DNA from: a bacterium
Lineage (GTDB): Bacteria > Zhuqueibacterota > Zhuqueibacteria > Zhuqueibacterales > Zhuqueibacteraceae
Reading direction: 5' to 3'
Assembly: GCA_044869275.1 (NCBI GenBank)
Contig: JBIOXB010000223.1
Coordinates: forward strand, 1-64,000
Length of the DNA stretch: 64,000 bases
Shown here: positions 49,697 through 64,000 of the stretch, piece after piece
How positions within the stretch are numbered: position 1 is the first letter of the stretch
Layout of the letters: the number at the start of each line of letters is the position of its first letter
Notes under the pieces: generated by a model
Seen by the model: the letters and a program-made list of their open reading frames with translations, nothing else
What the model was told of the DNA's origin: nothing
Database searches by the model: none
Made by a program: the position numbers and the translations under genes

Positions 49697-49797
49697 TTGC
49701 ACTATTTCTTGCAAGCGCAGTTGTTCTCGTTGCAATTGGTCAATTATCTCGCTGCTACTCGAACGGATACCGGTCTGTTGATCAACGTTGGTTCGTC
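49697..49797 (+). pseudogene. GxxExxY protein C-terminal remnant
   Basis: [20 protein letters not shown] resembles the GxxExxY C-terminal motif; preceded by GACAGAATT-type palindromic repeats. Confidence 0.55.
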
Positions 49798-52700
49798 ATT
49801 ATACCACGGAGAAAGAGATCAATCCCTTGCCCAATCCCGCGGTGACCGGCTTGTATCAGGATCGTCTGGGATATATTTGGATTTGCGCATACGGCGGCGG
49901 TTTAGTTCGTTACGACGGCCACAAAATGGAGATTTATGGAGCAGCGGATAGCCTGCCCAATGCAAAAACATGGCTCATATCCGAAGACGGCACGGGCCGG
50001 CTCTGGGCCGGAACCGAGGGCGGGGTGGTGGTTTCAGCAAAAGCGCTGACAGACTATGCCGCCGGCAAACGTCTCGCGTTTCTATCAAAAATCGGCGTAA
50101 CGAAGTTATTCGATAAAGGCGTATCCTTTGGCCGGCAAATGACGAGCGATACGGAAGGCCGAATATGGCTGGCCACCAAAGCGGACGGCATTATCCGCTA
50201 TCGCTGGCAAGGCAATGATCTGCTGGCGGCGGACACGCTCCGTACCGCCGCGTCCGGCAAGGAGGAAAATCAGCGCGTGCTCAGTGTGGAGGCGAGAAAA
50301 AACGGCACGATCTGCGCGGCGATGAAGGGGACGATCGTTGTTTGTGATTTACAAGCGCAATGGCGCGACACTTTGACCGCGAGTGAAGGCTTGCCCGGCG
50401 CCGCCACGGGCGTGCTTTATGAGGGTCCTTCCGGCACTTTATTTGGCGCCTGCGCGGATGGAACGATTTGGAGGCTCGACGAAGAAACCTCTCCTGCCAA
50501 AATCGAAATCATTCACACTGGCTTAAAGCACCCGATCACTGCACTCTGCGAAACAGCGGAAGGCAATTTGTGGATTGCCACGCTGGGCTCGGGGGTGGTG
50601 GAACTCGATCGCAGCCGGGCGTATCAGGCAAAAACGTATGGCAGCAGAAATGGCTTGCTGGGAGAAGTGTTCTGGGATGTGCTCGAAGATCGCGAGGGGA
50701 ATCTCTGGCTGGCGCAAAACAGCGGCCTGTCGAAGCTGCCGTTTAATTTTCGCGCCTTTCAATTTTATTCCGCCCAATCCCATCCAGGCCAGAGTCCGAA
50801 CTTGCCCGCTTCCGGCGTCATGGCGGTCTTGCAGACCGCCATGCCCTCGCCTGAAAACATGCTCTGCGCCGGTACGGAAAATGGCCTGGCGCTGATCGCG
50901 CCCGGGGGAAAGACTGAAACGTTGAATACCGAGAGTGGCTTGGTGAGCAACATCGTTTTTGGTGTGGCGGAAGATCGAGCCCACCGCGTTTGGATTACCT
51001 CGCGCGCCGGCGTTTATCGCAGCAGAATGCCTCTCACTGCGGCCGCATTTAAAAAGTGGCAGACCAAAGCATACAAGTTCAGTCCGTTGACCCTGGGCAA
51101 AGAAGTGATGTCGTCTGTTTTTGTTCCCGTCCTGCCACCGGGGGAGCAATTGCCGAGCCTGGGGATGGTTTGGGTCGATAGCTTGATGTGGGTCGCGGTG
51201 GACGGTGGCGTGCTGGCCGTGCGACCCGATCCGCCGAAAATTGTGGTCCGCTTCTCTCAAAAGGACAGTGTGGTGGCGGACGGCGGATTTGCCCTGAATT
51301 ATTCTCCTTTGACCCGGAAGCTGTGGCTGGGAACGACGGACGGGTTGAATGAGATCGATCCGGCCAGCCGCAAAGTCTTGCGCACGGTGAGCAAGCAAGA
51401 CGGCTTGGTGGGCGATAATTGTTGGGGCGTTTCCGCAATCAGTTTTGCCGATGCCGGCACGGTGTATTATGGCACCTCGAATAGCCTCAATCTTTATCGT
51501 CCGGAATACGATCGTGACAATGCGGTTCCGCCGGCGCCGCAGATCCGCAATGCCGTTTTTCACGAGGACGAGTGGGGACAAAACGAGATTTTGTTGGAAT
51601 ACGCTGGTCTGAGCTATGTCAATGAAAAACTGGTGCAATACAAAACTCGCCTCACCGGATATGATAAGAATTGGTCGAAAGAGACGGCGGAGAACAAGAT
51701 TCGCTATACCAATTTGCCGGCTTTTTTGTTCTCCAAGCAATATACCTTTTTCTACCGCCTGTACGAGCACGTCAATCGCCTGTGCGACGCCACGGTTTTC
51801 GGCGTCGGGATCTATCACCCGGACAAACAGCAAATCGAATACCGCCTCGCCATTGAAAAAGGCAAACGCTACGCGCCGTACACCCGCAACGCCGGCGACA
51901 AGAATCAATTTCCGGTCTGGTGCATCGAAAATCGCCGCCCGATTTTTATCAATGATGTTGCCGCCGACTATCGGCGCTATCTCAGCGAGTACAAAGACCC
52001 GCGGCGATTGCTCGAGGACGGCACATACTCCACTGCCCCGCAGTCGCTCATCTATCTCCCGCTGCTGGCACAAGAGCGCGTGCTCGGCGTCATCACGGTG
52101 CAGAGTTATGAAAAATACGCCTACACCGAATACCAGCTCAACCTGCTGCAAAACCTCGCGGCTTACACCACCATTGCGCTGGACAACGCCGATGCCTATC
52201 GCCGCCTCCATGCCACGCTGGAACACCTCAAAAATACGCAGCAGCAGCTCGTGACCCAGGAAAAGCTGGCCTCGCTCGGGCAGCTCACCGCCGGCATCGC
52301 GCACGAGATCAAGAATCCGCTGAATTTCGTGAACAACTTTGCCTCGGTGTCCAAGGAACTGGCCAGAGAGTTGCGGGAGGAGATCGAAAAGCGCCTGCCG
52401 GAAATTGGCAAGGGAGACGATTTCGAGAATCTCGCCAGCATCCTAAATGATCTGGAACGCAACGCGGAGAAGATCAATCACCACGGCAAGCGCGCCGACA
52501 GCATCGTGCGCAGCATGCTGCAGCTTTCACGCGGCAAATCCGGCGAGCGCGAGCTGACGGATATCAATGCTCTGCTGGATGAGGCCGTGAATTTGACCTA
52601 TCACGGTTTTCGTGCGCAGGAATCATCATTTAACCTCACCATAGAAAAAGAATACGATCCCGCCATCGGCAAGCTCGAGGTCGTGTCGCAGGATTTGAGC

Positions 52701-53147
52701 AGGGTGTTTTTGAATCTGCTCAGCAACGCCTGTTACGCCGTGCATCAGAAAGCGAGAGAGGGAGACGGGGAGAGTGGGAGAAAAAGAGACGGGGTGAGTG
52801 GGAGACCAGGAAAAACTGAGGACCCCTGTCACTCCGTCTCCCATTCTCCCGCTCAGAAGTTTACGCCAACGCTTTCAGTTGCAACAGAAAACTTGGGCGA
52901 CCAAATCGAAATCCGCGTCCGCGACAACGGCAACGGCATTCCGGCTGACCTGCGCGACATGATTTTTACTCCGTTTTTTACCACCAAGCCGGCCGGGCAG
53001 GGCACCGGGCTGGGATTGTCGATCAGCTACGATATCATTGTACAACAGCATGGCGGCGAGATGAAAGTCCAAACGGATGAGGGTAAATTCACGGAATTTG
53101 TGATTCGACTGGCCCGGCAGAGTCAGGCCAGTCTACGAAGTTTGTGA
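49788..53147 (+). CDS. propeller/Y_Y_Y-GAF histidine kinase, degenerate (no signal peptide, no TM)
   Basis: Reg_prop blades, [19 protein letters not shown]1/F/G2 boxes; lacks segments present in the downstream paralog. Confidence 0.8.
52751..52853. repeat. in-frame palindromic 8-nt repeat insertion in HATPase domain
   Basis: GGAGACGG/GGAGAGTG units and complementary CCGTCTCC/TTCTCCC arm; about 29 extra aa versus the paralog. Confidence 0.72.
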
Positions 53148-53213
53148 TGCGCTTGAGGAAGAATCAAATTTGCTATCAGCGGACATTCTAGGAACTTCAT
53201 GGATCGATTGGCC

Positions 53214-56200
53214 ATGCAGAAACTCTTCAGAACCTTGATTTCGATTATTTGTTTTTTGCTGTCGAGTTTCGTTTTTGGCCAGGAGCTCCCGTTCACACAT
53301 TACACCCAGGACAACGAAGTCGTCGCTCTGCCCTCGGCCGACGTTCGCACCATCTATCAAGATCGCGCGAGTTATATATGGTTTGTCGTCTACTCCTCCG
53401 GCTTGCTGCGCTACAATGGTCATAAAACTGATATTTATACCAAAGAAGATGGCCTACCCGATCTGACTGTCCTGCAGATTCTGGAAGATCACTTGGGAAG
53501 GCTCTGGGTTGCGACCAATCTTGGGCTCGCTGTTTCGGAAAAACCACTAAAAGAATATACCGGAAACCAGCGCATTGGCTTTAGCAACAAAATCGGAGCG
53601 ACTCAACTAATCAAAACCAGCATTGTCGCAAACCGAATGGCGGTCGATGCACAAGGAAGGCTCTGGATCGGAACCCGGGAAGATGGGATTCTCCGTTATC
53701 ACTTCAACGGACTGGATTCGGTCTCTGCGGATACAATTGGAACGCGTATTTATGGCGAAGAAAAGAATAAGGATATCCGATCCATAACTCTCCGCCGCGA
53801 TGGATCGGTTTGGGTTGGCATTGGCGGGGGAAATTTGTTGGTGTTCACCGCAGCGTCGGCAGCATATGATGTCCTCGCGGAAAAGGACGGCGCGCCCCGC
53901 TTCGAGACGGATGCGCTCTTTGAGAATCGCTCCGGTAAACTGTGGGGAGGTTGCCGGAATGGGCTGTTGTGGAGCTTGGTGGAAGAGGCGGGCCAACGAA
54001 GAGTGGAGGTTTTCAGTGAAGATCTGAAGAGTAGAATTACTTGCATCACCGGAACACAAGATGGAAAGCTCTGGGTGGCGAGCGATGGCTCCGGAATCAT
54101 GAGCATCACAGATGGCAACTTCCAGGTACCACAAAGCAGTAGTCCGCTTCGCCGCGTCATTTTCACGCAAAGAAACGGGTTGTTAGGCGACAATGTTGCC
54201 TATACTATCGAGGATAGGGAAGGAAACATTTGGCTTGCCCAATTAGGTGGCGTCTCGAAGTTGCGATCGAATTACGCGGCCTTCACGAATTTTCCCCCCA
54301 CCTCGCGTTTGGGCGAAAAATCAGCCTTGCTTAGCCCCTCCCTCAATGCTGTTCTCCCTCCCGCAGAGGGGCGCCCCTCATCGGGCATATGGGTGGGAAC
54401 ATCAGGCGCAGGTGCTGCCCTGATTGAAGCAGAGGGTAAAATCGAATTGATCCAAACCGACAGAGGGTTGCGAGAGAATTGGGTCAATGGTCTGGTTCGG
54501 GACGGCAAGGGACGAATTTGGATGGGAACCGCTGACGGCATAAACTGTCTCTCGTTCGATTCTCAAAATCCTCCTCCGCCCTCTCCGGAAATCCACAGCA
54601 TTTCCGTCCTGAATCGAAAAGGCATCATCGCGGCGTATGAACACCACACCATTTACGCCTGCCAAAAGCTGGCTTTCCCTGCTGCAGATGATAAAATAAA
54701 AAGCGTGGAAAGCCTTTGGTTCCCCGGCTATCAGCACCTTTATTGCTTTAGCGAGAATGAATGGTTCATCTTCAAGACCGCCTCCGGCCTTCCTGCTACA
54801 CTTTTTCATACCGTCGCCTTCGACGAAGCCGGAAGGCTCTTGGTTGGAACCAGGGACCGGGGTCTCTATCGCAGCAGATTTCCTCTCACGCGGACGAGGT
54901 TGCGGCAGTTGCAGGCTGAAGATGTTGGCTTTCCCATAGAGAAAGGCGGCGGAAAATTTGGCCGCGAAATATCAACCTCCATCTTCGAGCCAGTTTGGAA
55001 TCAATCGACCGGCGCGCCTTCCAATCAGATCGAGAACTTGCTGTGGCGAGACGGCATTTTATGGGTTGGAACGACGGAGGGCTTGTCGGTTCTCGAAAGC
55101 GAACCGCCCCGGATGACAACTCATCTCACCGTGGCCCAAGGTCTCAAAGCGAGCAATGTTACCAGCATGGCATTCTCTCCCGTCAGCGGCACACTCTGGG
55201 TGGGCACCAACGGCGGGCTGGCCGAAATTGATCCGCAGACTCGAAAAGTCATCCGCACGGTCACCAAGCAAGACGGTCTGGTCGACAACGAAGTTTGGTT
55301 CTATGGTTCGGTCGTGATGGCCGCAGATGGAGCAGTCTACTTCGGCACCGCAAAAGGACTCGCCATTTACCGGCCCCAGCTCGACAAGCCCAGTTCAGTT
55401 CTTCCCATCTTGCGCTTGGAGCGGGCGGACTTCACCGAAGACCACAGCGGCGACAACGAGATCGCATTTGAGTACGCCGCTCTGAGTTTTGCCAACGAGA
55501 AGCTGGTGCGATATAAAACCCGTTTGGTTGGCTACGATAAGGCTTGGACAGAGGAAAAAAGTGAGTTCAAGATTCGCTACACCAATCTGCCGGCATTTCT
55601 CTTTTCAAAGAAATACACATTTGAAGTGCTGGCTTCCAACGACGCCGGTTTTTGGACGGAAATGCCGCTGCTGCACTCATTCACGGTCCAGCCGCCCTGG
55701 TGGTTTCGCTGGTGGTGGCTGGCGTTGAATGCGGTGCTCTGGCTTGCCATTGTTTATGGCTTCAGCCGTTACCGCTTGCGACGACTCGAGATGAGGAGCA
55801 AGGTACTGGAAAGAACCGTACAGGAAAGAACGGAGGAAATTCGGCAGCAGGCAGAAGAACTGGAGACCTTAGACGGGATCGTGAAAGTGATCAACCGTGA
55901 AGTGGCGCTGGAAAGTGTTCTGCGCTCATTGCTCGAGCAGGGACTGAAGCTTTTTCCCCAGGCTGAAAAGGCCTCCGTTCTTCTCTTCGATCCTCAAATC
56001 GGCCGTTTTAAATTCGCCGTCGCTGCGGGATATGATCCCCACACGTTGAAGGATGTTTTCTTCACTCCAGAGGAATTGGTCAGCCGTTATTCGCAGGGAT
56101 CAGAAGAAGTGGGAAGCGGCGTTTACATCGTCCGGGATTTGCAAAATCGGTATGTCGAGAAGAAGTTGAACCTCGCCGCCATGCCGAGATCTGTGCTGGC

Positions 56201-57188
56201 GATGACGGCGGCATGGGAGAGCAAGCCGGAAGCGTATTTGATTTTTGATAACCTGACAAATGCCGAAGCGTTCGATCATTCCGACGCCCACAAACTCGGC
56301 CGCTTCCGCGAGCACGCGATTTCCGCCATTGCCAAAGCGAAAATGCTGCAGGAGCTCCAGGAGAAAAACGCTGAGATCATCAAAACACAAAATCAGCTCA
56401 TCATGCAAGAAAAGCTTGCTTCTCTTGGCGCTTTGACCGCGGGCATCGCGCATGAGATCAGAAATCCCTTGAACTTCGTCAATAATTTTGCCGAGCTTTC
56501 CACAGACTTGACCCAAAGCCTGCAGGAGGATCTCACCCAGCAGGAAGATCGGCTGGATCCCAAAGTGCGTGCGAATATGGAAGAGCTTGTCCAAGATTTG
56601 CAGCAAAATTTGGCAAAGATCAACCAGCACGGCAAGAGAATCGACACCATCGTGGGCGGCATGCTCCTGCACTCCCAGGGAAAAACCGGAGAACGCGTGC
56701 CGACCGAAATAAACGCTTTATTGGATGAATATGTTCATCTCGCTGATCATGGCTTGCGGGCACAGGATTCGAGTTACAGTGTCGCCATAAAGACGGATTA
56801 TGATCGATCTATCGGTGAGATTGAAGTGGTGCCGCTGGACCTCAGTCGCGTTTTTCTCAACATGGTCAAAAATGCCTGCTATGCCGCCAATGAAAAGAAA
56901 AAAACTGCACCTCCACCGTTTATCCCAACGGTTTCTGTTTGCACAAGGAACTTGAATGGTAACGTGGAGATACGTATTCGAGATAATGGCAGTGGCATTC
57001 CCAAGAACATTGTGGACAGAATTTTCAACCCTTTTTTCACGACCAAGCCGACTGGGCAGGGTACGGGGCTGGGTTTGTCGCTCAGTTACGATGTGGTGGT
57101 GAAGGAGCACAAAGGGGAAATAAAAGTTGAGACCGAAGAGGGGCAATATGCGGAATTCATCATCACGTTGCCAATGAGCAAGAAGTAG
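53214..57188 (+). CDS. two-component sensor histidine kinase (propeller-Y_Y_Y-TM-GAF-HisKA-HATPase)
   Basis: Signal peptide, repeated D..G.LW.GT blades, PPWWFRWW+TM, GAF, AHEIRNPL, DNGSG, PFFTTK..GTGLGL. Confidence 0.92.
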   Translation: MQKLFRTLISIICFLLSSFVFGQELPFTHYTQDNEVVALPSADVRTIYQDRASYIWFVVYSSGLLRYNGHKTDIYTKEDGLPDLTVLQILEDHLGRLWVATNLGLAVSEKPLKEYTGNQRIGFSNKIGATQLIKTSIVANRMAVDAQGRLWIGTREDGILRYHFNGLDSVSADTIGTRIYGEEKNKDIRSITLRRDGSVWVGIGGGNLLVFTAASAAYDVLAEKDGAPRFETDALFENRSGKLWGGCRNGLLWSLVEEAGQRRVEVFSEDLKSRITCITGTQDGKLWVASDGSGIMSITDGNFQVPQSSSPLRRVIFTQRNGLLGDNVAYTIEDREGNIWLAQLGGVSKLRSNYAAFTNFPPTSRLGEKSALLSPSLNAVLPPAEGRPSSGIWVGTSGAGAALIEAEGKIELIQTDRGLRENWVNGLVRDGKGRIWMGTADGINCLSFDSQNPPPPSPEIHSISVLNRKGIIAAYEHHTIYACQKLAFPAADDKIKSVESLWFPGYQHLYCFSENEWFIFKTASGLPATLFHTVAFDEAGRLLVGTRDRGLYRSRFPLTRTRLRQLQAEDVGFPIEKGGGKFGREISTSIFEPVWNQSTGAPSNQIENLLWRDGILWVGTTEGLSVLESEPPRMTTHLTVAQGLKASNVTSMAFSPVSGTLWVGTNGGLAEIDPQTRKVIRTVTKQDGLVDNEVWFYGSVVMAADGAVYFGTAKGLAIYRPQLDKPSSVLPILRLERADFTEDHSGDNEIAFEYAALSFANEKLVRYKTRLVGYDKAWTEEKSEFKIRYTNLPAFLFSKKYTFEVLASNDAGFWTEMPLLHSFTVQPPWWFRWWWLALNAVLWLAIVYGFSRYRLRRLEMRSKVLERTVQERTEEIRQQAEELETLDGIVKVINREVALESVLRSLLEQGLKLFPQAEKASVLLFDPQIGRFKFAVAAGYDPHTLKDVFFTPEELVSRYSQGSEEVGSGVYIVRDLQNRYVEKKLNLAAMPRSVLAMTAAWESKPEAYLIFDNLTNAEAFDHSDAHKLGRFREHAISAIAKAKMLQELQEKNAEIIKTQNQLIMQEKLASLGALTAGIAHEIRNPLNFVNNFAELSTDLTQSLQEDLTQQEDRLDPKVRANMEELVQDLQQNLAKINQHGKRIDTIVGGMLLHSQGKTGERVPTEINALLDEYVHLADHGLRAQDSSYSVAIKTDYDRSIGEIEVVPLDLSRVFLNMVKNACYAANEKKKTAPPPFIPTVSVCTRNLNGNVEIRIRDNGSGIPKNIVDRIFNPFFTTKPTGQGTGLGLSLSYDVVVKEHKGEIKVETEEGQYAEFIITLPMSKK

Positions 57189-57694: not shown

Positions 57695-59026
57695 TCAATG
57701 CCCACCTCCACCGCCGCCCGAACTGTTCAGCAGGGTGAAGACTGCAGTTGCGTCCGAGAGCGTGCCCATCGTTCCAGCCACTGTGATCGGCGCAAACTTC
57801 CCTGCAGCCCCCGCGCTGGTGGTTGAATTGCTCAGCACCAGGGATTCGCCCCAACCGAGCAAGACGAGTTGCAGCGCAGCAGCGTCAGTACCGACTATTC
57901 CAAGCCCCGCCACGTGATTGAATTCAGCGGCGAGAAGCTCCCTTTGGAGTGCGTCAAGATCGCTTTTGACGGGTTTATTCAGAAGATCAAAGGCATCCTG
58001 GAGGCCATCGCCATTTGGCAAGAGAAACGGATCGGAAGGCAGCAAAGCTCGGATCTGAATGACAAAGCCCTGAAGCATCGTTTTGGAATAATCTGCTTTG
58101 CCTTTGCCAGTTAGGGCAATCTGCAATTGCTTTTTCCAGTACGTGGCGGATCTTCCTGTCGTCACCAGCGTTCCGGATTTGAAGTCATTAATGAGCTGGC
58201 TTGCCTTGGGCTCGAATCCAAAATCATTCCCACTGGCGTCTGGACCGACAGAGACGTTGACTTCGGCCGGGGTCGTCGCTGCCAGATAGTTGGTCGAGTT
58301 CGTTTCGAGTGTGGTTTCGTCAACCTTAATCGTGTAAGCTCCGGCTGGGAAGCCCTCGAAGACATAGAATCCACTGTTGGAGGTGACAGCTGTGCCGACA
58401 ACCGAGTCATCAGAATCAAAAAGATTTAGTGTGACATTCTTGATGCCGGCTTCGTTACCGTCAAGGAGCCCACTGGTGTTTGCGTCAGTGAAAACAGTTC
58501 CTGAGATATCAAAGACGCGTGCACAAGCACCCGCAATTTCTCCAACTTGAGTCGTGCCGTTGGATTTTACGGACACCAAAACGATTCCCTCGCGAACCGA
58601 CCCTGGGTAGGTTACGGAAAAAGTGAATGTGTTCTCTTCACCGGATCCAACGCTGGGGTGCCATTCAACGCCCGGGTTGATCACGGGGTCTGGATTGGTG
58701 GTTGATCCGTTGGTTGGGGACAATGCGGACAAGGCTGGAGCACAGGAGGGGAGCTCGAGCCTGAAATGCATATCCACCGCCGGGCCGGATACCGTGTAAG
58801 TGAAAGTCGTTTGGGTACCATCGAAGGTTTGCCCATCATAATGGACATGGAAACCGGCGAGATCGAGGGCTGTCGGCGCAAGTTTTTGCAGCGCTACTGT
58901 TTCATAGTTGCCCGATTGCTGTTTTGGTGCGGATGGACTTGTAACTGGATTTTTCGTTCCGTCACAACCCGAGGCAATCAACCCGGCGACCGTGGCAATG
59001 AATGCGAGGGACAACAGCTTTTTCAT
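57695..59026 (-). CDS. lipoprotein with SdrD B-like domain
   Basis: AGGAG RBS, lipobox ASGC, ISGTVFTDAN.SG..D..E.GI..V..T...G.Y.F, DFGF, TYWKKQ..LLAAEFN helical C-domain, Gly-rich tail. Confidence 0.85.
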   Translation of the reverse strand: MKKLLSLAFIATVAGLIASGCDGTKNPVTSPSAPKQQSGNYETVALQKLAPTALDLAGFHVHYDGQTFDGTQTTFTYTVSGPAVDMHFRLELPSCAPALSALSPTNGSTTNPDPVINPGVEWHPSVGSGEENTFTFSVTYPGSVREGIVLVSVKSNGTTQVGEIAGACARVFDISGTVFTDANTSGLLDGNEAGIKNVTLNLFDSDDSVVGTAVTSNSGFYVFEGFPAGAYTIKVDETTLETNSTNYLAATTPAEVNVSVGPDASGNDFGFEPKASQLINDFKSGTLVTTGRSATYWKKQLQIALTGKGKADYSKTMLQGFVIQIRALLPSDPFLLPNGDGLQDAFDLLNKPVKSDLDALQRELLAAEFNHVAGLGIVGTDAAALQLVLLGWGESLVLSNSTTSAGAAGKFAPITVAGTMGTLSDATAVFTLLNSSGGGGGGH

Positions 59027-59199
59027 GGATACTCCTTTTAGAGTTGTGAAATTGACGATTACATAAACATATAAAATACAATTATTTTCCCTTGTAAAGC
59101 AAGCAGTACTTTCTCTTGTCGAAACGGAATGACTTCACTCCAACCTGTCCCAAACGGGAAAGGAAGCACTTTTTTGTGCTTTTGTGAGCTTGAATGCAT

Positions 59200-59225
59200 T
59201 ACAAACGACCAGAACAAAAGTTGGT
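59200..59225 (-). promoter_or_regulatory. putative ECF promoter, copy A
   Basis: Minus strand ACCAACTTTT-N12-TGTA facing the SdrD-B lipoprotein gene. Confidence 0.7.
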
Positions 59226-59288
59226 GAGGTTGCATGTTAATTTTTTGCAGTGTAGTTTTTGCTTGTTTTTGAAAACACTCATTTGGCG

Positions 59289-59314
59289 ACCAACTTTTTG
59301 GTTTTTCGACTGTA
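59289..59314 (+). promoter_or_regulatory. putative ECF promoter, copy B (autoregulatory)
   Basis: ACCAACTTTT-N12-TGTA immediately before the sigma ATG. Confidence 0.65.
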
Positions 59315-59317
59315 GTT

Positions 59318-59872
59318 ATGACAGAACCCAATGACCAGGTATTTGTGCGGGAATGTCTGCACGGCAACCAGGAAGCTTTTGGCGCCCTTATTGGCCGGCA
59401 CCAGCGGGCAGTCTTCAATGTGGCATTGCGTATGACCAAAGATTATCAAGAGGCGCAGGACGTCACCCAGGCCGTCTTCATTAAAGCATATGAGAAGCTG
59501 GGCGAATACGACGCGCAATACAAGTTTTTTAGCTGGATTTATCGCATGGCCGTGAATGAGGCGCTGAATTTCATCAAACGCAAGCAGCGCTTTGAGGGAT
59601 TAAATCCGAACCAAGATTACGCGGCTCTTACCCCAAACCCGGCAGACGATTACGAGGAAAGCGAGATGAGCCGCAATATTCAAAACGCCCTGATGTTGTT
59701 GAAAGTGGACTACCGCGCCATTATCGTCCTCAAGCATTTTCAGGAGCTCTCGTATCATGAGATCGGCTATATTCTCGGTTTACCCGAAAAAACCGTGAAG
59801 TCCCGCTTGTTCACTGCGCGGCAACTATTGAAGCAGGTTCTGCTCAAACAGGGATATGTTGAAAATGATTGA
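59318..59872 (+). CDS. ECF RNA polymerase sigma factor
   Basis: Region 2 AQDVTQAVFIKAY..FFSWIYRMAVN, region 4 LSYHEIG.ILG....TVKSRLFTAR. Confidence 0.95.
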   Translation: MTEPNDQVFVRECLHGNQEAFGALIGRHQRAVFNVALRMTKDYQEAQDVTQAVFIKAYEKLGEYDAQYKFFSWIYRMAVNEALNFIKRKQRFEGLNPNQDYAALTPNPADDYEESEMSRNIQNALMLLKVDYRAIIVLKHFQELSYHEIGYILGLPEKTVKSRLFTARQLLKQVLLKQGYVEND

Positions 59873-60647
59873 AGATAAATACCTCGAGCTCATACACGGC
59901 GAGATCGACCGCGCCAACTCGGCCGAGGAAAGTGCGAAGCTCAGAGCCTTTCTTGCTGCCCATGCCGAGGCGCGGCAGTTCTACGAGGAACTGACGGGCA
60001 TGACGGCCATGCTGCAGGAGGTGAAACCCGTCGAGCCGCCGCCGCATCTGCCGCAGGTGATCATGAACCTCTTGCCGATGCGCCCCTCTTCCGCCCGGGA
60101 AAAACGCAACTTCATCACTGCGGCAAGAACCTGGCTTGCGGCCACATTTCGCCCCGGCTACGCTTTCGCTTTTGCCGGGGGCGCGGTTGCCGGAGTGATC
60201 CTGCTCGTTTTGTTTTCGCAGCCGGTACTGAAGGACGAGGTCACAGATTGGTCAAAGCTGTATGGCACAATGGGAGCGCCGCAAACCGGAGAAAATGCGT
60301 CTGGTGAGAAACGCCTGGAAATCAGCCAGCCGGAAGTGACCGGCACCATCAGCTTGAAACCTGCCGGTGAAAGCATGATCATTGAGATCGTGCTCGATTC
60401 GCCGCAATCCCTCGAGCTCGTGATTTCATTTGATGAGAAAGCACTCGGCTTCAAGAGCCTTATCGAATTTGAGAAAGTGGCGCCAATTGAGATGGTCCTG
60501 AATGTGGGTTCGATAAGATTCACACACTCGAGCCGGCAGAGCTATGCCCTCGTTTTTGCGCGGCGCGCCGCCACAACACCGGCCATCGATTTCAAGGTTC
60601 TGCAGAATAGCGCGTTGTTGTATCAAAACACGCTGGAGGATCGCTAG
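59865..60647 (+). CDS. anti-sigma factor (helical N-domain, single TM, periplasmic domain)
   Basis: Overlaps the sigma stop; LIHGEID..EE...L..FLAAH.EAR resembles a Cys-less zf-HC2; PPPHL; one TM. Confidence 0.82.
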   Translation: MIEDKYLELIHGEIDRANSAEESAKLRAFLAAHAEARQFYEELTGMTAMLQEVKPVEPPPHLPQVIMNLLPMRPSSAREKRNFITAARTWLAATFRPGYAFAFAGGAVAGVILLVLFSQPVLKDEVTDWSKLYGTMGAPQTGENASGEKRLEISQPEVTGTISLKPAGESMIIEIVLDSPQSLELVISFDEKALGFKSLIEFEKVAPIEMVLNVGSIRFTHSSRQSYALVFARRAATTPAIDFKVLQNSALLYQNTLEDR

Positions 60648-60706
60648 CCCGGTAAATTTATAAAACTAAACCGCCGAGACGCCAGCAAAATAATTTTGCG
60701 AGCTTC

Positions 60707-60732
60707 ACCAACTTTTCAATGTTTGGATTGTA
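60707..60732 (+). promoter_or_regulatory. putative ECF promoter, copy C
   Basis: ACCAACTTTT-N12-TGTA about 75 nt before the repeat-protein ATG. Confidence 0.7.
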
Positions 60733-60805
60733 TTTCAATCAGAACTGCAAAGATGAATAAGAACGCATTTATCAATTCTGCATCATGTTTCAACCGGAGG
60801 CCGTC

Positions 60806-61801
60806 ATGAGCAATAGCACCCCATTGGTCAATCGCAAGAATCTGTGGTTAATCGCCGGCGCCCTCATCGTCGTGCTGGCGATTGGTTACTATGCGCTCAG
60901 CATTCGCCCGCCTTCGCTTGAAGATACCGCCGGCACCATCGGTGGCGTGAAGAAAGCCGAGAAGTATCAAAGCGAACAAATGAGCGATAAGGACGTGGTC
61001 TTAACCTCCGCCCAAATTCAAAACCTGCTACAGAACGATCAGATTCAAAATCTCATCACCAGCTCCGAGTTCAAAGCGGTGATGGCAAACGCGGAGCTGC
61101 GCTCGGCGCTGGCGAGTCCGGAGTTGCGTTCGGCAATGGCCAGCCCGGAGCTGAGATCAGCATTGGCAAGTCCGGAACTGCGCTCAGCATTGGCGAGTCC
61201 GGAGTTGCGTTCGGCAATGGCCAGCCCAGAGCTGCGCTCGGCGCTCGCGAGCCCGGAGTTGCGTTCAGCACTGGCCAGCCCAGAGTTGAGGTCGGCTTTA
61301 GCAAGTCCGGAACTGCGCTCAGCATTGGCGAGTCCGGAGTTGCGTTCGGCAATGGCCAGCCCGGAACTGCGCTCGGCGTTGGCTAATGCCGATCTTAAAG
61401 CGGCGCTGGCGAGCCCGGAATTGCAAGCCGCCTTGGCCAGTCCTGAACTCCGCTCCGTGATGGCGAACCCGGAATTGCGTTCGGCATTGGCGAATCCAAA
61501 TTTGCAGGCGGCGATGGCAAACGCGGAATTACGTTCAGCGCTGGCGAGCCCTGAGATGCAAGCGGCCTTGGCAAGTCCCGAGCTGCGTTCCGCTTTGGCG
61601 AGCCCGGAATTGCGGTCAGCGCTGGCGAGCCCTGAAATGCAAGCGGCATTGGCGAGCCCGGAATTGCGCTTGGCGTTGGCCAGTCCGGAATTGAGTGCGG
61701 CCCTGGCGAATCCGGAAATGCAAGCCGCGATGGCGAATGCCGAGCTGCGCTCGGCGCTGGCGAATCCTAATTTTCAAGCGGCGATGTTGCAGGCGCAGTG
61801 A
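60806..61801 (+). CDS. membrane-anchored protein with about 27 nonapeptide (ALASPELRS) repeats
   Basis: GGAGG RBS, N-terminal TM, 27-nt repeats with synonymous codon variation. Confidence 0.88.
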   Translation: MSNSTPLVNRKNLWLIAGALIVVLAIGYYALSIRPPSLEDTAGTIGGVKKAEKYQSEQMSDKDVVLTSAQIQNLLQNDQIQNLITSSEFKAVMANAELRSALASPELRSAMASPELRSALASPELRSALASPELRSAMASPELRSALASPELRSALASPELRSALASPELRSALASPELRSAMASPELRSALANADLKAALASPELQAALASPELRSVMANPELRSALANPNLQAAMANAELRSALASPEMQAALASPELRSALASPELRSALASPEMQAALASPELRLALASPELSAALANPEMQAAMANAELRSALANPNFQAAMLQAQ

Positions 61802-61954
61802 GTGAGGTGGTACCGATTTCCATTGGCGTGCAGCTTCCCTCCCTTGTTTGTCATTCTGGAAGAATCTTTTTCAGCTTGAGTAAATTGCTCAGAGGCGAGA
61901 GAGATTTTCCAGAATGACTTTCTGTTTTTGAGCAAAGGCGTCCCGGAGGAAGAA

Positions 61955-64000
61955 ATGACCCGTACGATCATAATTGATCGTCAATTTTCTTGGTCTAGTA
62001 AAACTCGCGGATTGCTGTTATCCCTGCTTCTGTTCTTCTCTTCGGCCCACGCGCAATTTCAAAGCTTCGAGACTCCCAATCTGCGCCTGATCTATTACAG
62101 CTCAGCGCAAGAATATCTCGTTCCACATATCGCCCGCTGTTTTGAAAATGCCCTGCGTTTCCATCGGGGCATCTTCGATTATTCCCCAGAGGGCAAAATC
62201 ACCGTATTTCTGCAAGATCTCGCGGATTACGGCAACGGCGGGGCGGAGGTGCTGCCGCGCAACTTTGTGTATGTGCTCATGCCCTCGTTTCCTCATGCTT
62301 ACGAAATCGTGCTCGGCAACGAGCGCATGAATTGGATGATGAACCACGAGCTCGCGCACATCGTGTCGATGGACAAAGCGGCAAGCCGTGATGAGTTTTT
62401 CCGCATGCTTTTTGCGGGCAAGGTCTATCCGGAAGCCGCGCATCCCGTTTCGATGCTATATAGTTATCTCACCGCCCCACGCCGTTATGCGCCGCGCTGG
62501 TATCACGAAGGCAGTGCCGTCTTTCTCGAGACCTGGATGGCCGGCGGCTTGGGTCGTGCGCTGTCCTCGTATTATGAAATGGTATTTCGCACCATGGTGC
62601 GTGACCGCAGTTACTTTTACGATCTCGTCGGCTTGGAATCCGAAGGCACGGCGATTGATTTCCAAGTCGGCGCGAATTCATATCTGTACGGCACGCGCTT
62701 CGTCAGTTATGTCGCCGATCAATATGGGCCGGAGAAACTGATGTGTTGGCTCGCGCGCGCTGACAGCAGCAAGAGTTATTATGCCGGCCAATTCAAAAAG
62801 GTATATGGCCTCCCGCTTGATCACGCTTGGCGGCAATGGATTGCTTGGGAGCATCAATTTCAACAAGCCAACCTCGATTCGCTGCAACTTTATCCGATCA
62901 CCTCATATCGCCCAATCACACGCACCGCGCTGGGTTCTGTGTCTCGCGGATATTATGATCCGACGCGGAAAAAGTTGTATGTCGCGTTGAATTACCCTGG
63001 CCAGATTCCGCATCTGGCGGCCATCGACGCCAATACCGGCGTGATTCAGAAAATTTGCAATATTCGCGGCGGCGCTACATATTATGTCGCTGCACTCGCG
63101 TACGACGCTACCGGCCAGAGGCTTTTTTTCACCGAGAAGAACAATGCCTGGCGCGATCTCTGCGCCGTGGACTTGCGCACAGGTGAAAAGCGGATATTGC
63201 TTGAAACCGCGCGGATTGGCGATTTGGCTTTCAATCAAGCCGACAGCTCGCTGTGGGGCATTCGCAGTTCTCTGGGCCTGTCCACTCTCGTGCGTATTCC
63301 TTATCCCTACCAGGAATGGAATCAAGTGTTAACGTTCCCTTACGGCCATGAAGTCTATGATTTATCCCTCGCACCCGATGGCGCTGCGCTGGTAGCCTCA
63401 CGCACAGAAGTGAATGGCAGGCAAAAGCTCATCCAAATGGATACGAAAAAATTGCTGGCGGGTGACAGCTCTTTTGCAGTGATATATGATTTTGAATTCA
63501 GCTCGCCGGAAAGTTTCACGTTCTCTGCGGATGGAAGATATTTATACGGCTCTTCATATTACTCCGGCGTCTCTAATATCTATCGCTATGATTTCGGCCG
63601 CAAAGAAATGGAGATCGTGAGCAACGCCGAAACCGGCTTCTTCCGCCCCGTGCCGGTTTCTGAGGACTCATTGATCGCGATGTGTTACACCGGCAAAGGC
63701 TTCATGCCGGTGATGCTGCCGAATCAAAAGCCAGAATATGTCAACGCCATTCAATTTCTCGGGAATGAGGTTGTCAAAAACCATCCGCAGGTCAAAGAGT
63801 GGAAAATTCCCGCGCCGGCCAGTATCGTGCTCGATTCTCTCGCGACTGCAACGACCAGCTACAGTTCACTGCGCGACACCAAGCTGGCTTCTGCCTATCC
63901 CATCGTCGAAGGCTACAAAGCCTATACGGCCGTTGGCGCACGTGTGAAGTTTTCCAATTCGTTGCGCCTCAGCGATTTGAGCCTCACTGCTTCATATTCG
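61955..64000 (+). CDS. secreted gluzincin-like (HExxH) peptidase domain + TolB-like beta-propeller protein, partial at window end
   Basis: GGAGG RBS, signal peptide ..SSAHA-Q, NHELAH, PRWYHEGSAV, FSADGRYLY..GVSNIY; frame open to the window end, so absent from the ORF track. Confidence 0.85.
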   Translation, partial: MTRTIIIDRQFSWSSKTRGLLLSLLLFFSSAHAQFQSFETPNLRLIYYSSAQEYLVPHIARCFENALRFHRGIFDYSPEGKITVFLQDLADYGNGGAEVLPRNFVYVLMPSFPHAYEIVLGNERMNWMMNHELAHIVSMDKAASRDEFFRMLFAGKVYPEAAHPVSMLYSYLTAPRRYAPRWYHEGSAVFLETWMAGGLGRALSSYYEMVFRTMVRDRSYFYDLVGLESEGTAIDFQVGANSYLYGTRFVSYVADQYGPEKLMCWLARADSSKSYYAGQFKKVYGLPLDHAWRQWIAWEHQFQQANLDSLQLYPITSYRPITRTALGSVSRGYYDPTRKKLYVALNYPGQIPHLAAIDANTGVIQKICNIRGGATYYVAALAYDATGQRLFFTEKNNAWRDLCAVDLRTGEKRILLETARIGDLAFNQADSSLWGIRSSLGLSTLVRIPYPYQEWNQVLTFPYGHEVYDLSLAPDGAALVASRTEVNGRQKLIQMDTKKLLAGDSSFAVIYDFEFSSPESFTFSADGRYLYGSSYYSGVSNIYRYDFGRKEMEIVSNAETGFFRPVPVSEDSLIAMCYTGKGFMPVMLPNQKPEYVNAIQFLGNEVVKNHPQVKEWKIPAPASIVLDSLATATTSYSSLRDTKLASAYPIVEGYKAYTAVGARVKFSNSLRLSDLSLTASYS

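Follow-up and report, generated by a model that had tools for sequence, protein, structure and literature searches.

An extracytoplasmic function sigma factor cassette with a promoter motif abutting the sigma start codon: a candidate PrsW-type circuit coupled to the outer membrane

We analyzed a 64,000-nucleotide stretch of DNA (positions 1 to 64,000, forward strand, of contig JBIOXB010000223.1, assembly GCA_044869275.1; hereafter the window) from a bacterium of the Zhuqueibacteraceae. Near its end lies a cassette with genes for a sigma factor of the extracytoplasmic function (ECF) type, an anti-sigma factor, a membrane-anchored nonapeptide-repeat protein, and an outer-membrane protein made up of a peptidase, a propeller, and a beta-barrel, together with a lipoprotein gene on the opposite strand (Table 1). 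With a probability of roughly 0.55, we read this cassette as a PrsW-type regulated-proteolysis ECF circuit that is coupled to the outer membrane and wired to damp itself. Sequence comparisons leave us nearly certain of the underlying regulon and gene set: one clade of sigma factors appears to own the promoter CCAACTTT-N13-TGTAnTT, its conserved targets would be the anti-sigma factor, the repeat protein, and the outer-membrane protein, PrsW travels along, and the lipoprotein is a local add-on. The five open reading frames of the original prediction, made from the letters of the window, are as described there. Its proposal that they form one undescribed envelope system holds for the four genes of the conserved cassette, but not for the lipoprotein gene, which is absent from all 70 outside loci and from the cassette loci fetched from relatives; PrsW and a partner-switching module belong to the core instead.

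The window contains exactly three matches to the pattern ACCAACTTTT-N12-TGTA, at 59200-59225 on the minus strand (copy A) and at 59289-59314 and 60707-60732 on the plus strand (copies B and C), precisely where the original prediction had placed three identically spaced copies; none of 100 dinucleotide shuffles of the window gave three or more matches (shuffle mean 0.00). In the whole genome (255 contigs, 6,667,740 bases) the pattern occurs only at these sites; with spacers of 8-11 or 13-17, it has no match in the same 6,667,740 bases. A weight matrix trained solely on 20 sites from relatives also puts the three window copies on top genome-wide (scores of 40.2, 34.2, and 33.7), followed by a fourth-ranked site at 25.5, with a maximum of 20.6 in the reversed-genome control. 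This fourth site (C65) was dropped as a regulon member, as it lies antisense within a lepA-like gene.

The motif has the bipartite form of an ECF promoter close to the sigma factor's own gene, with AAC in the -35 element and (C/T)GT in the -10 element, and its position is conserved. Copy B stands ahead of the sigma gene in all 11 relatives, among 40, that have the anti-sigma factor (the copies of G007 and G011 carry one change), and copy C stands ahead of the repeat gene in 10/10 relatives having that gene. Among outside loci, the motif is present upstream of the sigma gene in 42 of the 54 examined, compared with 1 of 1872 control windows (the promoter, frame, and internal-start counts for outside loci leave out L100 and L118 throughout). 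The extended consensus across loci includes a T at both the second and the third position after TGTA (50/54 loci each), and the spacer of the sigma promoter is 13 in 49/54 loci and 14 in the other 5. The conserved position spans four phyla, which bears out the earlier suggestion that the motif is an ECF-type promoter bound up with this sigma factor. It appears extremely improbable that the motif is a chance repeat or the operator of another regulator and that the genes are unrelated neighbors: a shorter pattern does match singly in three cassette-less relatives, near the control rate of about one isolated match per genome that is expected by chance, but positional conservation across phyla, genome-wide uniqueness, and the co-occurrence of the genes contradict this explanation.

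The gene set itself was traced by scanning representative genomes with an alignment of the repeat protein, which retrieved 70 loci, mostly in Acidobacteriota, with some in Gammaproteobacteria and Bacteroidota. Although these loci were fetched by the repeat protein alone, the peptidase gene is present in 59 and the sigma gene in 56, and several of the misses reflect short contigs; the co-occurrence of genes around repeat-protein homologs, on which the original prediction leaned, is thus borne out. In a phylogenetic tree, 64 sigma factors of homologous loci form one clade relative to three paralogs from the window's genome (support 98/93). The anti-sigma factor was found in 11 of the 40 relatives, or 12 of 41 genomes with the window's own, and PrsW is present in exactly the same 12. 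PrsW also follows a complete outer-membrane gene within 600 nucleotides in 49 of 62 loci. Components of the partner-switching module were matched in many of the 84 loci examined (STAS in 52, RsbW in 41, and PP2C in 41), and no motif copy drives the RsbW/STAS/PP2C genes in the divergent Acidobacterial arrangement. Literature searching, with subscription papers mostly outside its coverage, found no paper that describes this cassette.

The sigma factor has the ECF (group IV) architecture, with region 2 at residues 24-91 and region 4 (r4_2) at 119-171 separated by a short linker, and with a TIGR02937 match above cut-off. The anti-sigma factor has a Class I layout, encoded at +1, in which a helical N-terminal domain without CxxC is followed by one transmembrane (TM) helix, an L135-x-G137|T motif, and a beta-rich-looking periplasmic domain of no assigned family; its family matches lie below the curated cut-offs (E 3.8e-7 for the NCBIfam anti-sigma model NF052375). 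The N-terminal domains of 15 aligned anti-sigma factors contain no cysteine pair and so lack the zinc-binding HxxxCxxC of RsiW, and residues 125-263 had no match at 0.9 in an Atlas search.

How the circuit is wired depends in large part on copy B. The original prediction had noted as a caveat that copy B lies only 3 nucleotides from the sigma ATG; this distance is exact, and the arrangement behind it, with the sigma ATG ahead of the predicted transcription start, is conserved. ECF sigma factors flip out a base of the -10 element (PMC8103513). All three window copies have C and then A at positions 8 and 9. The distance from AAC to GT is 17 nucleotides here, presumably the same as in RpoE and SigW promoters. 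Because of the base flip-out and this distance, the A of TGTA should lie at about -10, and the start is therefore predicted 9-10 nucleotides later, which for copy B can be put at 59323, five bases past the A of the sigma ATG. A pyrimidine-purine initiator fits at all three window copies and at 53/54 sigma sites.

In 43/54 loci, the predicted transcription start comes after the sigma start codon. An in-frame ATG is found 2-8 nucleotides upstream of that start in 25/54, and in 18/54 no start codon falls between -8 and +12, the only candidates being a GTG that the -10 box itself supplies or start codons farther upstream. ATGs directly after the -10 box are in frame in 28 cases and out of frame in none, and the 43 loci share no downstream start codon at a fixed position. 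Because the start codon precedes the predicted start in these 43 loci, copy B probably makes anti-sigma factor and not sigma factor; the simplest reading is that it yields anti-sigma without sigma in most lineages. For the original prediction, which noted that ECF sigma factors usually autoregulate, this makes simple positive feedback doubtful.

Several observations weigh against this reading. In 11/54 loci (8 with ATG and 3 with GTG/TTG; 6 of the 11 are close relatives), there is a start codon at the predicted start or beyond it, and in these loci copy B can amplify the sigma factor. The initiator is weak at mostly non-coding sites (16/24, compared with a 51% background), and no housekeeping promoter for the sigma gene was found, the sigma-70 promoter scan giving 6 compared with 3.0 in shuffles. 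In addition, two RNA runs contained only 0.06-0.07 of the words (contigs only), and the loci share descent, so that the counts are not independent. A terminator scan stayed near the shuffle level (6 compared with 6.9). A possible but rather doubtful alternative is that copy B is an ordinary positive-feedback promoter, with sigma translated from a downstream in-frame GTG (Val10, 22 nucleotides past the predicted start, after CAGGT) or from a non-canonical start, or with the true start nearer the -10 box. The 8 ATG and 3 GTG/TTG loci just mentioned fit such feedback, about 55% of ECF sigma factors are predicted to autoregulate (PMC8103513), and the ATG lies strictly 4-5 nucleotides after TGTA in 25 loci of four phyla, which looks leaderless. 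It is opposed by the lack of a conserved downstream start codon, by the base flip-out (PMC8103513), which puts the ATG at about -6, and by L077 and L081, in which an in-frame ATG was seen by eye upstream of the whole promoter.

The second unusual element is the relation between the anti-sigma factor and the repeat protein. They are encoded by separate genes in the window's group, in four Gammaproteobacteria, and in one Bacteroidota locus, whereas in Acidobacteriota a fused gene encodes the anti-sigma domain and the repeat protein in one frame. A profile of split-type anti-sigma N-termini scored best in the repeat's own frame in 44/44 fused loci (L066, L067, and L119 left out), with at least 10 bits in 32 of them and in none of the other frames, and 10 of 12 fused proteins tested matched NCBIfam anti-sigma models, below cut-off. 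This profile test supersedes a direct comparison of the window's anti-sigma factor with the first alignment, which was weak (probability 26.6). In five loci with a sigma gene close by, the anti-sigma domain is out of frame with the repeat (L108, L110, L119, L125, and L126). Just before the membrane helix, 46/47 fused genes (L119 kept) have an ATG, GTG, or TTG in the reading frame, accompanied by a ribosome site at least 4 bases long, compared with 45 of 376 control windows of equal size elsewhere in the same frames. In 15/47, a copy of the promoter under the strict pattern lies inside the coding sequence, 80-100 nucleotides upstream of this internal start; a pattern loosened after the data were seen raises this to 17/47, in two reading frames (11 and 6). 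The internal copies fall in three separate clades of the sigma tree.

Given the internal start with its ribosome site in 46/47 genes and the internal promoter in 15-17, the fused genes probably make two products. It is very probable, from these sequences, that a single gene in Acidobacteriota gives two isoforms: a long anti-sigma factor with the head and the repeats as its periplasmic part, and a short form from which the sigma-binding domain is missing. The short isoform probably equals the window's repeat protein, with the window splitting the two jobs over two genes. Weighing against this, 30/47 fused genes have no internal promoter, and the spacer of most internal copies is longer by one base. 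As an observation on the same tree, most fused loci that contain an internal promoter show an ATG just past the -10 box of the sigma promoter, and most that contain none lack this ATG and have only the GTG of the -10 box; the pattern is clade-bound.

The repeat protein of the window contains 26 full nonapeptides, 9 of them LASPELRSA, and is helical; its monomer model is a chain of eight-residue helices (predicted local distance difference test, pLDDT, 76.1; predicted template modeling score, pTM, 0.35). Among solved structures the fold had no match (best Z 4.1, best Foldseek E 5.4; GerD absent from the rows), which says nothing on novelty. In Pfam, it matches STI1-HOP_DP at E 7e-12 with no single passing stretch and GerD at E 7e-6, below cut-off, and Atlas searches returned just unnamed or STI1-labeled clusters of low recognition value. 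The B-domain nonapeptides of coagulation factor V (profile E 3e-8) were considered as kin and set aside as compositional convergence. Because intact-looking proteins run from about 250 to more than 500 residues from the membrane helix on, the repeats are not a fixed ruler.

A candidate cleavage site links both proteins to PrsW. The window genome's PrsW has intact EExxK, FxxxE, and HxxxN motifs, which we take to be the PrsW signature. Repeat heads carry T/A/S/L/V-x-G/A followed by T/A/S-I/V in 45/45 cases, 9-13 residues past the hydrophobic stretch, and split anti-sigma factors carry L-x-G followed by T/A/S in 15/15, 13-17 residues past the membrane stretch; L135 and G137 are the sole invariant columns in the periplasmic part of the latter. 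In one relative (G025), the sigma and anti-sigma factors, LxG|T, promoter B, and PrsW are kept, and no close repeat gene and no outer-membrane gene were found. Because G025 keeps the motif, promoter B, and PrsW without those two genes, the xxG|T motif points to PrsW, and this motif, outside the membrane in both proteins, is likely the PrsW site. In Bacillus subtilis, the bond that PrsW cleaves in RsiW lies between Ala168 and Ser169, both small residues (PMC8767453). Against this assignment, xxG|T suits signal peptidase I too, and in the window's genome unrelated genes separate PrsW from the outer-membrane gene, with no motif before PrsW. The proposed role of PrsW in polymorphic-toxin export (PMC3482391) is unfit for this protein, which stands alone without a fused C-terminal domain; in the parts available, PMC4598750 and PMC3482391 offer only background on PrsW.

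For the outer-membrane protein (residues counted from Thr2 at 61958; add 1 for Met1 numbering), it had been proposed that an HExxH/propeller protein may end in an outer-membrane barrel, and the model of the full protein, which runs on past the window, contains one. This model (mean pLDDT 88.2, pTM 0.86) consists of a helical peptidase, a propeller, and a barrel whose 16 long strands were counted by hand on the model. Omp85_2 is matched in 10/45 family members (best E 3.3e-4), and the barrel has no VRG(F/Y) motif. The peptidase shows the gluzincin (Peptidase MA clan) residues H130, E131, H134, and E184, invariant in 45/45 full-length homologs aligned, and its Pfam match is weak (E 2.4e-4). The propeller resembles TolB 1c5k (Z 22.8, root mean square deviation 2.8, 239 aligned; Foldseek E 1e-9), tied with other six-bladed propellers. 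The whole-protein fold searches were filled by the propeller, so that the peptidase and the barrel have no structural match.

In a complex prediction, the head of the repeat protein (residues 41-80) with residues 33-991 of the outer-membrane protein scored 0.83, compared with 0.00 for the best of three controls; the mark for this score is reached by 116 of 157 solved pairs and 2 of 215 mismatched pairs, a calibration that holds only roughly here because our own alignments were used. The runs share at least 82% of contacts, with a partner pLDDT of at least 70, and head residues 43, 45-67, and 71 are predicted to contact residues 194-198, 534-537, 594-598, and 616-622, among others. Among solved structures, no comparable complex turned up. 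The model suggests, with good probability, that the two proteins bind and that the head docks in a groove between the peptidase, the propeller, and the propeller-barrel linker. On the other side of the balance, several of the tightest contacts use V48-K50, an insertion in only 6/45 heads, and the interface columns are barely above average in conservation (0.72 compared with 0.68).

The predicted docking allows a different use of the same parts, which we consider unlikely: the repeat protein would be exported cargo, cut by signal peptidase I at A/T-x-G|T, with the head as a secretion signal that docks on the peptidase-propeller, the Omp85-like barrel moving the repeats to the surface in two-partner style, the gluzincin trimming them, and the fused anti-sigma factor reporting export capacity. 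The (-3,-1) rule is indeed met in 45/45 heads 9-13 residues after the hydrophobic stretch, the predicted contacts begin right at the cut site (residues 43-45), the repeat and outer-membrane genes are jointly lost in G025 and jointly degraded in G001, and signal peptidase is the site-1 protease for RsiV (PMC4183432). However, export leaves PrsW, the strictest companion of the anti-sigma factor, without a job, the barrel lacks both VRG(F/Y) and POTRA domains, and in the model the head docks on soluble domains instead of the barrel. More improbable still is that site-1 cleavage is the work of the outer-membrane gluzincin instead of PrsW, with the gluzincin gripping the head and cutting the repeat-bearing anti-sigma factor. 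Its HExxH and downstream Glu are invariant in 45/45 homologs and the head binds beside the peptidase domain in the model, but catalytic residues 130, 131, 134, and 184 are outside the confident predicted contacts, and G025, in which no outer-membrane gene was found, keeps the sigma and anti-sigma factors, LxG|T, promoter B, and PrsW.

Returning to the PrsW-type circuit, we propose that at rest the sigma factor would be held by the anti-sigma factor. PrsW would then, somewhat more probably than otherwise, cut the anti-sigma factor at LxG|T about 13-17 residues outside the membrane and release sigma. Released sigma would fire promoter C, giving the repeat and outer-membrane proteins, promoter A, giving the lipoprotein, and promoter B, whose transcript, beginning just inside the sigma gene, would give anti-sigma factor and no full-length sigma, a step that we favor modestly for the window. 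The repeat protein bears an xxG|T site too, and the head just beyond it would dock on the outer-membrane protein. The sigma-induced repeat protein would most likely compete for this docking site and for PrsW, or else report to the anti-sigma factor; by such competition, the response would most likely be reset. A more specific scheme is only tentative: trans-envelope signaling, in which the outer-membrane protein grips the head of a repeat-bearing anti-sigma factor and gates its cleavage by PrsW, and sigma is shut off by two nested devices that recur across phyla, the start-codon promoter and an internally initiated, sigma-blind isoform acting as a decoy or exported cargo.

Table 1. Features of the cassette and of the adjoining part of the contig
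Feature	Position	Strand	Description
Lipoprotein	57695..59026	-	SdrD_B-like domain (E 8.4e-14); lipobox IASG|C21; AGGAG ribosome site
Promoter copy A	59200..59225	-	Directed at lipoprotein; predicted start ~59191, 165-nt leader
Promoter copy B	59289..59317	+	-35 CCAACTTT / -10 TGTAnTT; abuts sigma ATG; predicted start 59323-59324, within sigma codon 2-3
ECF sigma factor	59318..59872	+	184 aa; sigma2 and sigma4 only; Sigma70_r2 (E 3.4e-17), Sigma70_r4_2 (E 1.8e-12)
Anti-sigma factor	59856..60647	+	Single-pass; likely start 59865; TM ~aa 103-121
Promoter copy C	60707..60735	+	Predicted start ~60741; 65-nt leader; GGAGG ribosome site ahead of 60806
TM-head-repeat protein	60806..61801	+	331 aa; TM aa 13-33; T-A-G43|T44 motif; conserved head aa 43-85; repeats from aa 93
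Outer-membrane protein	61955..64000, on to contig 64933	+	992 aa; signal peptide; gluzincin-type peptidase (HELAH and downstream Glu); TolB-like propeller; predicted 16-strand Omp85-like barrel without POTRA
PrsW	contig 73414-74490		8.5 kb past outer-membrane gene; PF13367 (E 1.3e-21); EExxK, FxxxE, HxxxN intact
PrsW, RsbW-like kinase, STAS, and receiver-PP2C genes	G000:C223:73414-76793		Same contig, beyond the window

Close orthologs of the lipoprotein were found in 2 of the 40 relatives. The copy in G016 is far from the G016 sigma gene and has the motif upstream nonetheless; for the copy in G001, the motif was not found within 300 nucleotides upstream. We regard the lipoprotein as a genuine but accessory regulon target. 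Other motif-led genes that recur in relatives encode a secreted vWA/DUF11 protein in three genomes (L043, L052, and L056) and a propeller sensor kinase in another three (L047, L048, and L058), and single loci show a TonB-receptor-like gene (by eye, L059) and a 106-residue open reading frame (L050). Surface proteins seem to be recruited into the regulon one lineage at a time, with single motif matches expected by chance at about one per genome. The window also contains, ahead of the cassette at 49788-53147 and 53199-57188, two sensor histidine kinases of the propeller/Y_Y_Y type; the first seems, by eye, to pass from Y_Y_Y straight into a GAF-like part with no membrane helix, as though an inner stretch had been deleted.

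Some loci depart from the usual arrangement. In seven (L078, L080, L101, L105, L106, L107, and L111), a stand-alone repeat gene is directly divergent from an RsbW/STAS module; in 6/7 the outer-membrane gene and PrsW come after the repeat gene, and the fetched stretch contains no sigma gene. In such loci, the module may work without a linked sigma factor. Four others (L076, L083, L098, and L126) have a sigma gene and a repeat-type gene, and their fetched flanks contain neither an outer-membrane gene nor PrsW; three of these have no motif before the sigma gene. In the same-genus relative G001, promoter C is followed by degraded repeat and outer-membrane genes (G001:C290, L023), and a short intact repeat gene adjoins rsbW and prsW on another contig (G001:C246, L024). 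A second outer-membrane homolog (47%) is present at G007:C20:77348-80329, and G021:C426 carries a distant one, in a genome without an anti-sigma or PrsW match.

The closest parallel among known systems is sigma-W/RsiW/PrsW/RasP of B. subtilis, which likewise combines an ECF sigma factor, a single-pass anti-sigma factor, and a PrsW-family protease; SigW is also the best NCBIfam match of the sigma factor, below cut-off. By contrast, the present hosts are diderm, PrsW is inside the cassette, the anti-sigma factor has no zinc-binding CxxC, the -35 element is CCAACTTT and not TGAAAC, and a repeat protein, an outer-membrane peptidase-barrel, and a partner-switching module are added. In FecI/FecR/FecA cell-surface signaling, an outer-membrane barrel is coupled to an inner-membrane anti-sigma factor through a short periplasmic contact. 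The predicted docking resembles this TonB-dependent arrangement, but the barrel here is modeled with 16 strands and joined to a peptidase and a propeller, there is no TonB-dependent receptor, and no FecR domain was matched. Sigma-dependent transcripts that shift the sigma/anti-sigma balance also have precedents in Streptomyces sigma-R prime, reportedly a feedback isoform of an ECF operon, and in the Escherichia coli rseA promoter inside rpoE. Here, unlike in those cases, the start codon of sigma is overlaid by the promoter, and it would be the anti-sigma factor that has a nested isoform, one without the sigma-binding domain.

As in sigma-V/RsiV, a signal-peptidase-like site lies just outside the anti-sigma membrane helix (PMC4183432), but we saw no lysozyme-binding domain, PrsW is present, and the motif recurs in another protein, one induced by sigma. 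Of the groups compared, ECF249 (Casas-Pastor et al., 2021; PMC7826278) has the nearest -35 element, CGCAACTTT, and shares a single-TM anti-sigma factor at +1 and members in Acidobacteria and Bacteroidetes; it differs in its -10 element (GTT, compared with TGTA or TGTC in most sites here), and the context listed for it in the available text (cytochromes, tryptophan synthesis, EF-hand, and SCO1) was not seen here. In the passages searched of that classification's supplement, whose motif logos are pictures, no group with matching promoter and context came up. The WD40-Omp85 subfamily (Heinz and Lithgow, 2014; PMC4104836) also has a TolB-like propeller before an Omp85-type barrel, and protease-barrel fusions have been proposed for periplasmic quality control (PMC4104836). 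Unlike in WD40-Omp85 and Metallo-Omp85, a gluzincin precedes the propeller here, the parts of PMC4104836 available make no tie to ECF systems or repeat proteins, and PF00149, the mark of Metallo-Omp85, was found in 0/45 outer-membrane homologs. Our literature search, with subscription papers mostly outside its coverage, also found no paper on internal anti-sigma isoforms or on promoters over start codons. What appears new here is the start-overlapping promoter, the nested isoform, the shared xxG|T site, and the predicted docking.

Overall, the analysis provides a promoter consensus, a gene set, and testable contacts for an envelope-signaling system that is common in soil Acidobacteriota, is present in at least three other phyla, and is tied to no studied ECF group in the literature searched. 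Through it, peptidase-propeller-Omp85-like proteins would gain a named partner for the first time, and PrsW would gain a role in diderms. Should the nested wiring be true, the system would be a counter-example to the rule that ECF sigma factors amplify themselves, gene callers would be merging two products in the fused anti-sigma genes, and the arrangement would offer a compact self-limiting switch for synthetic circuits.

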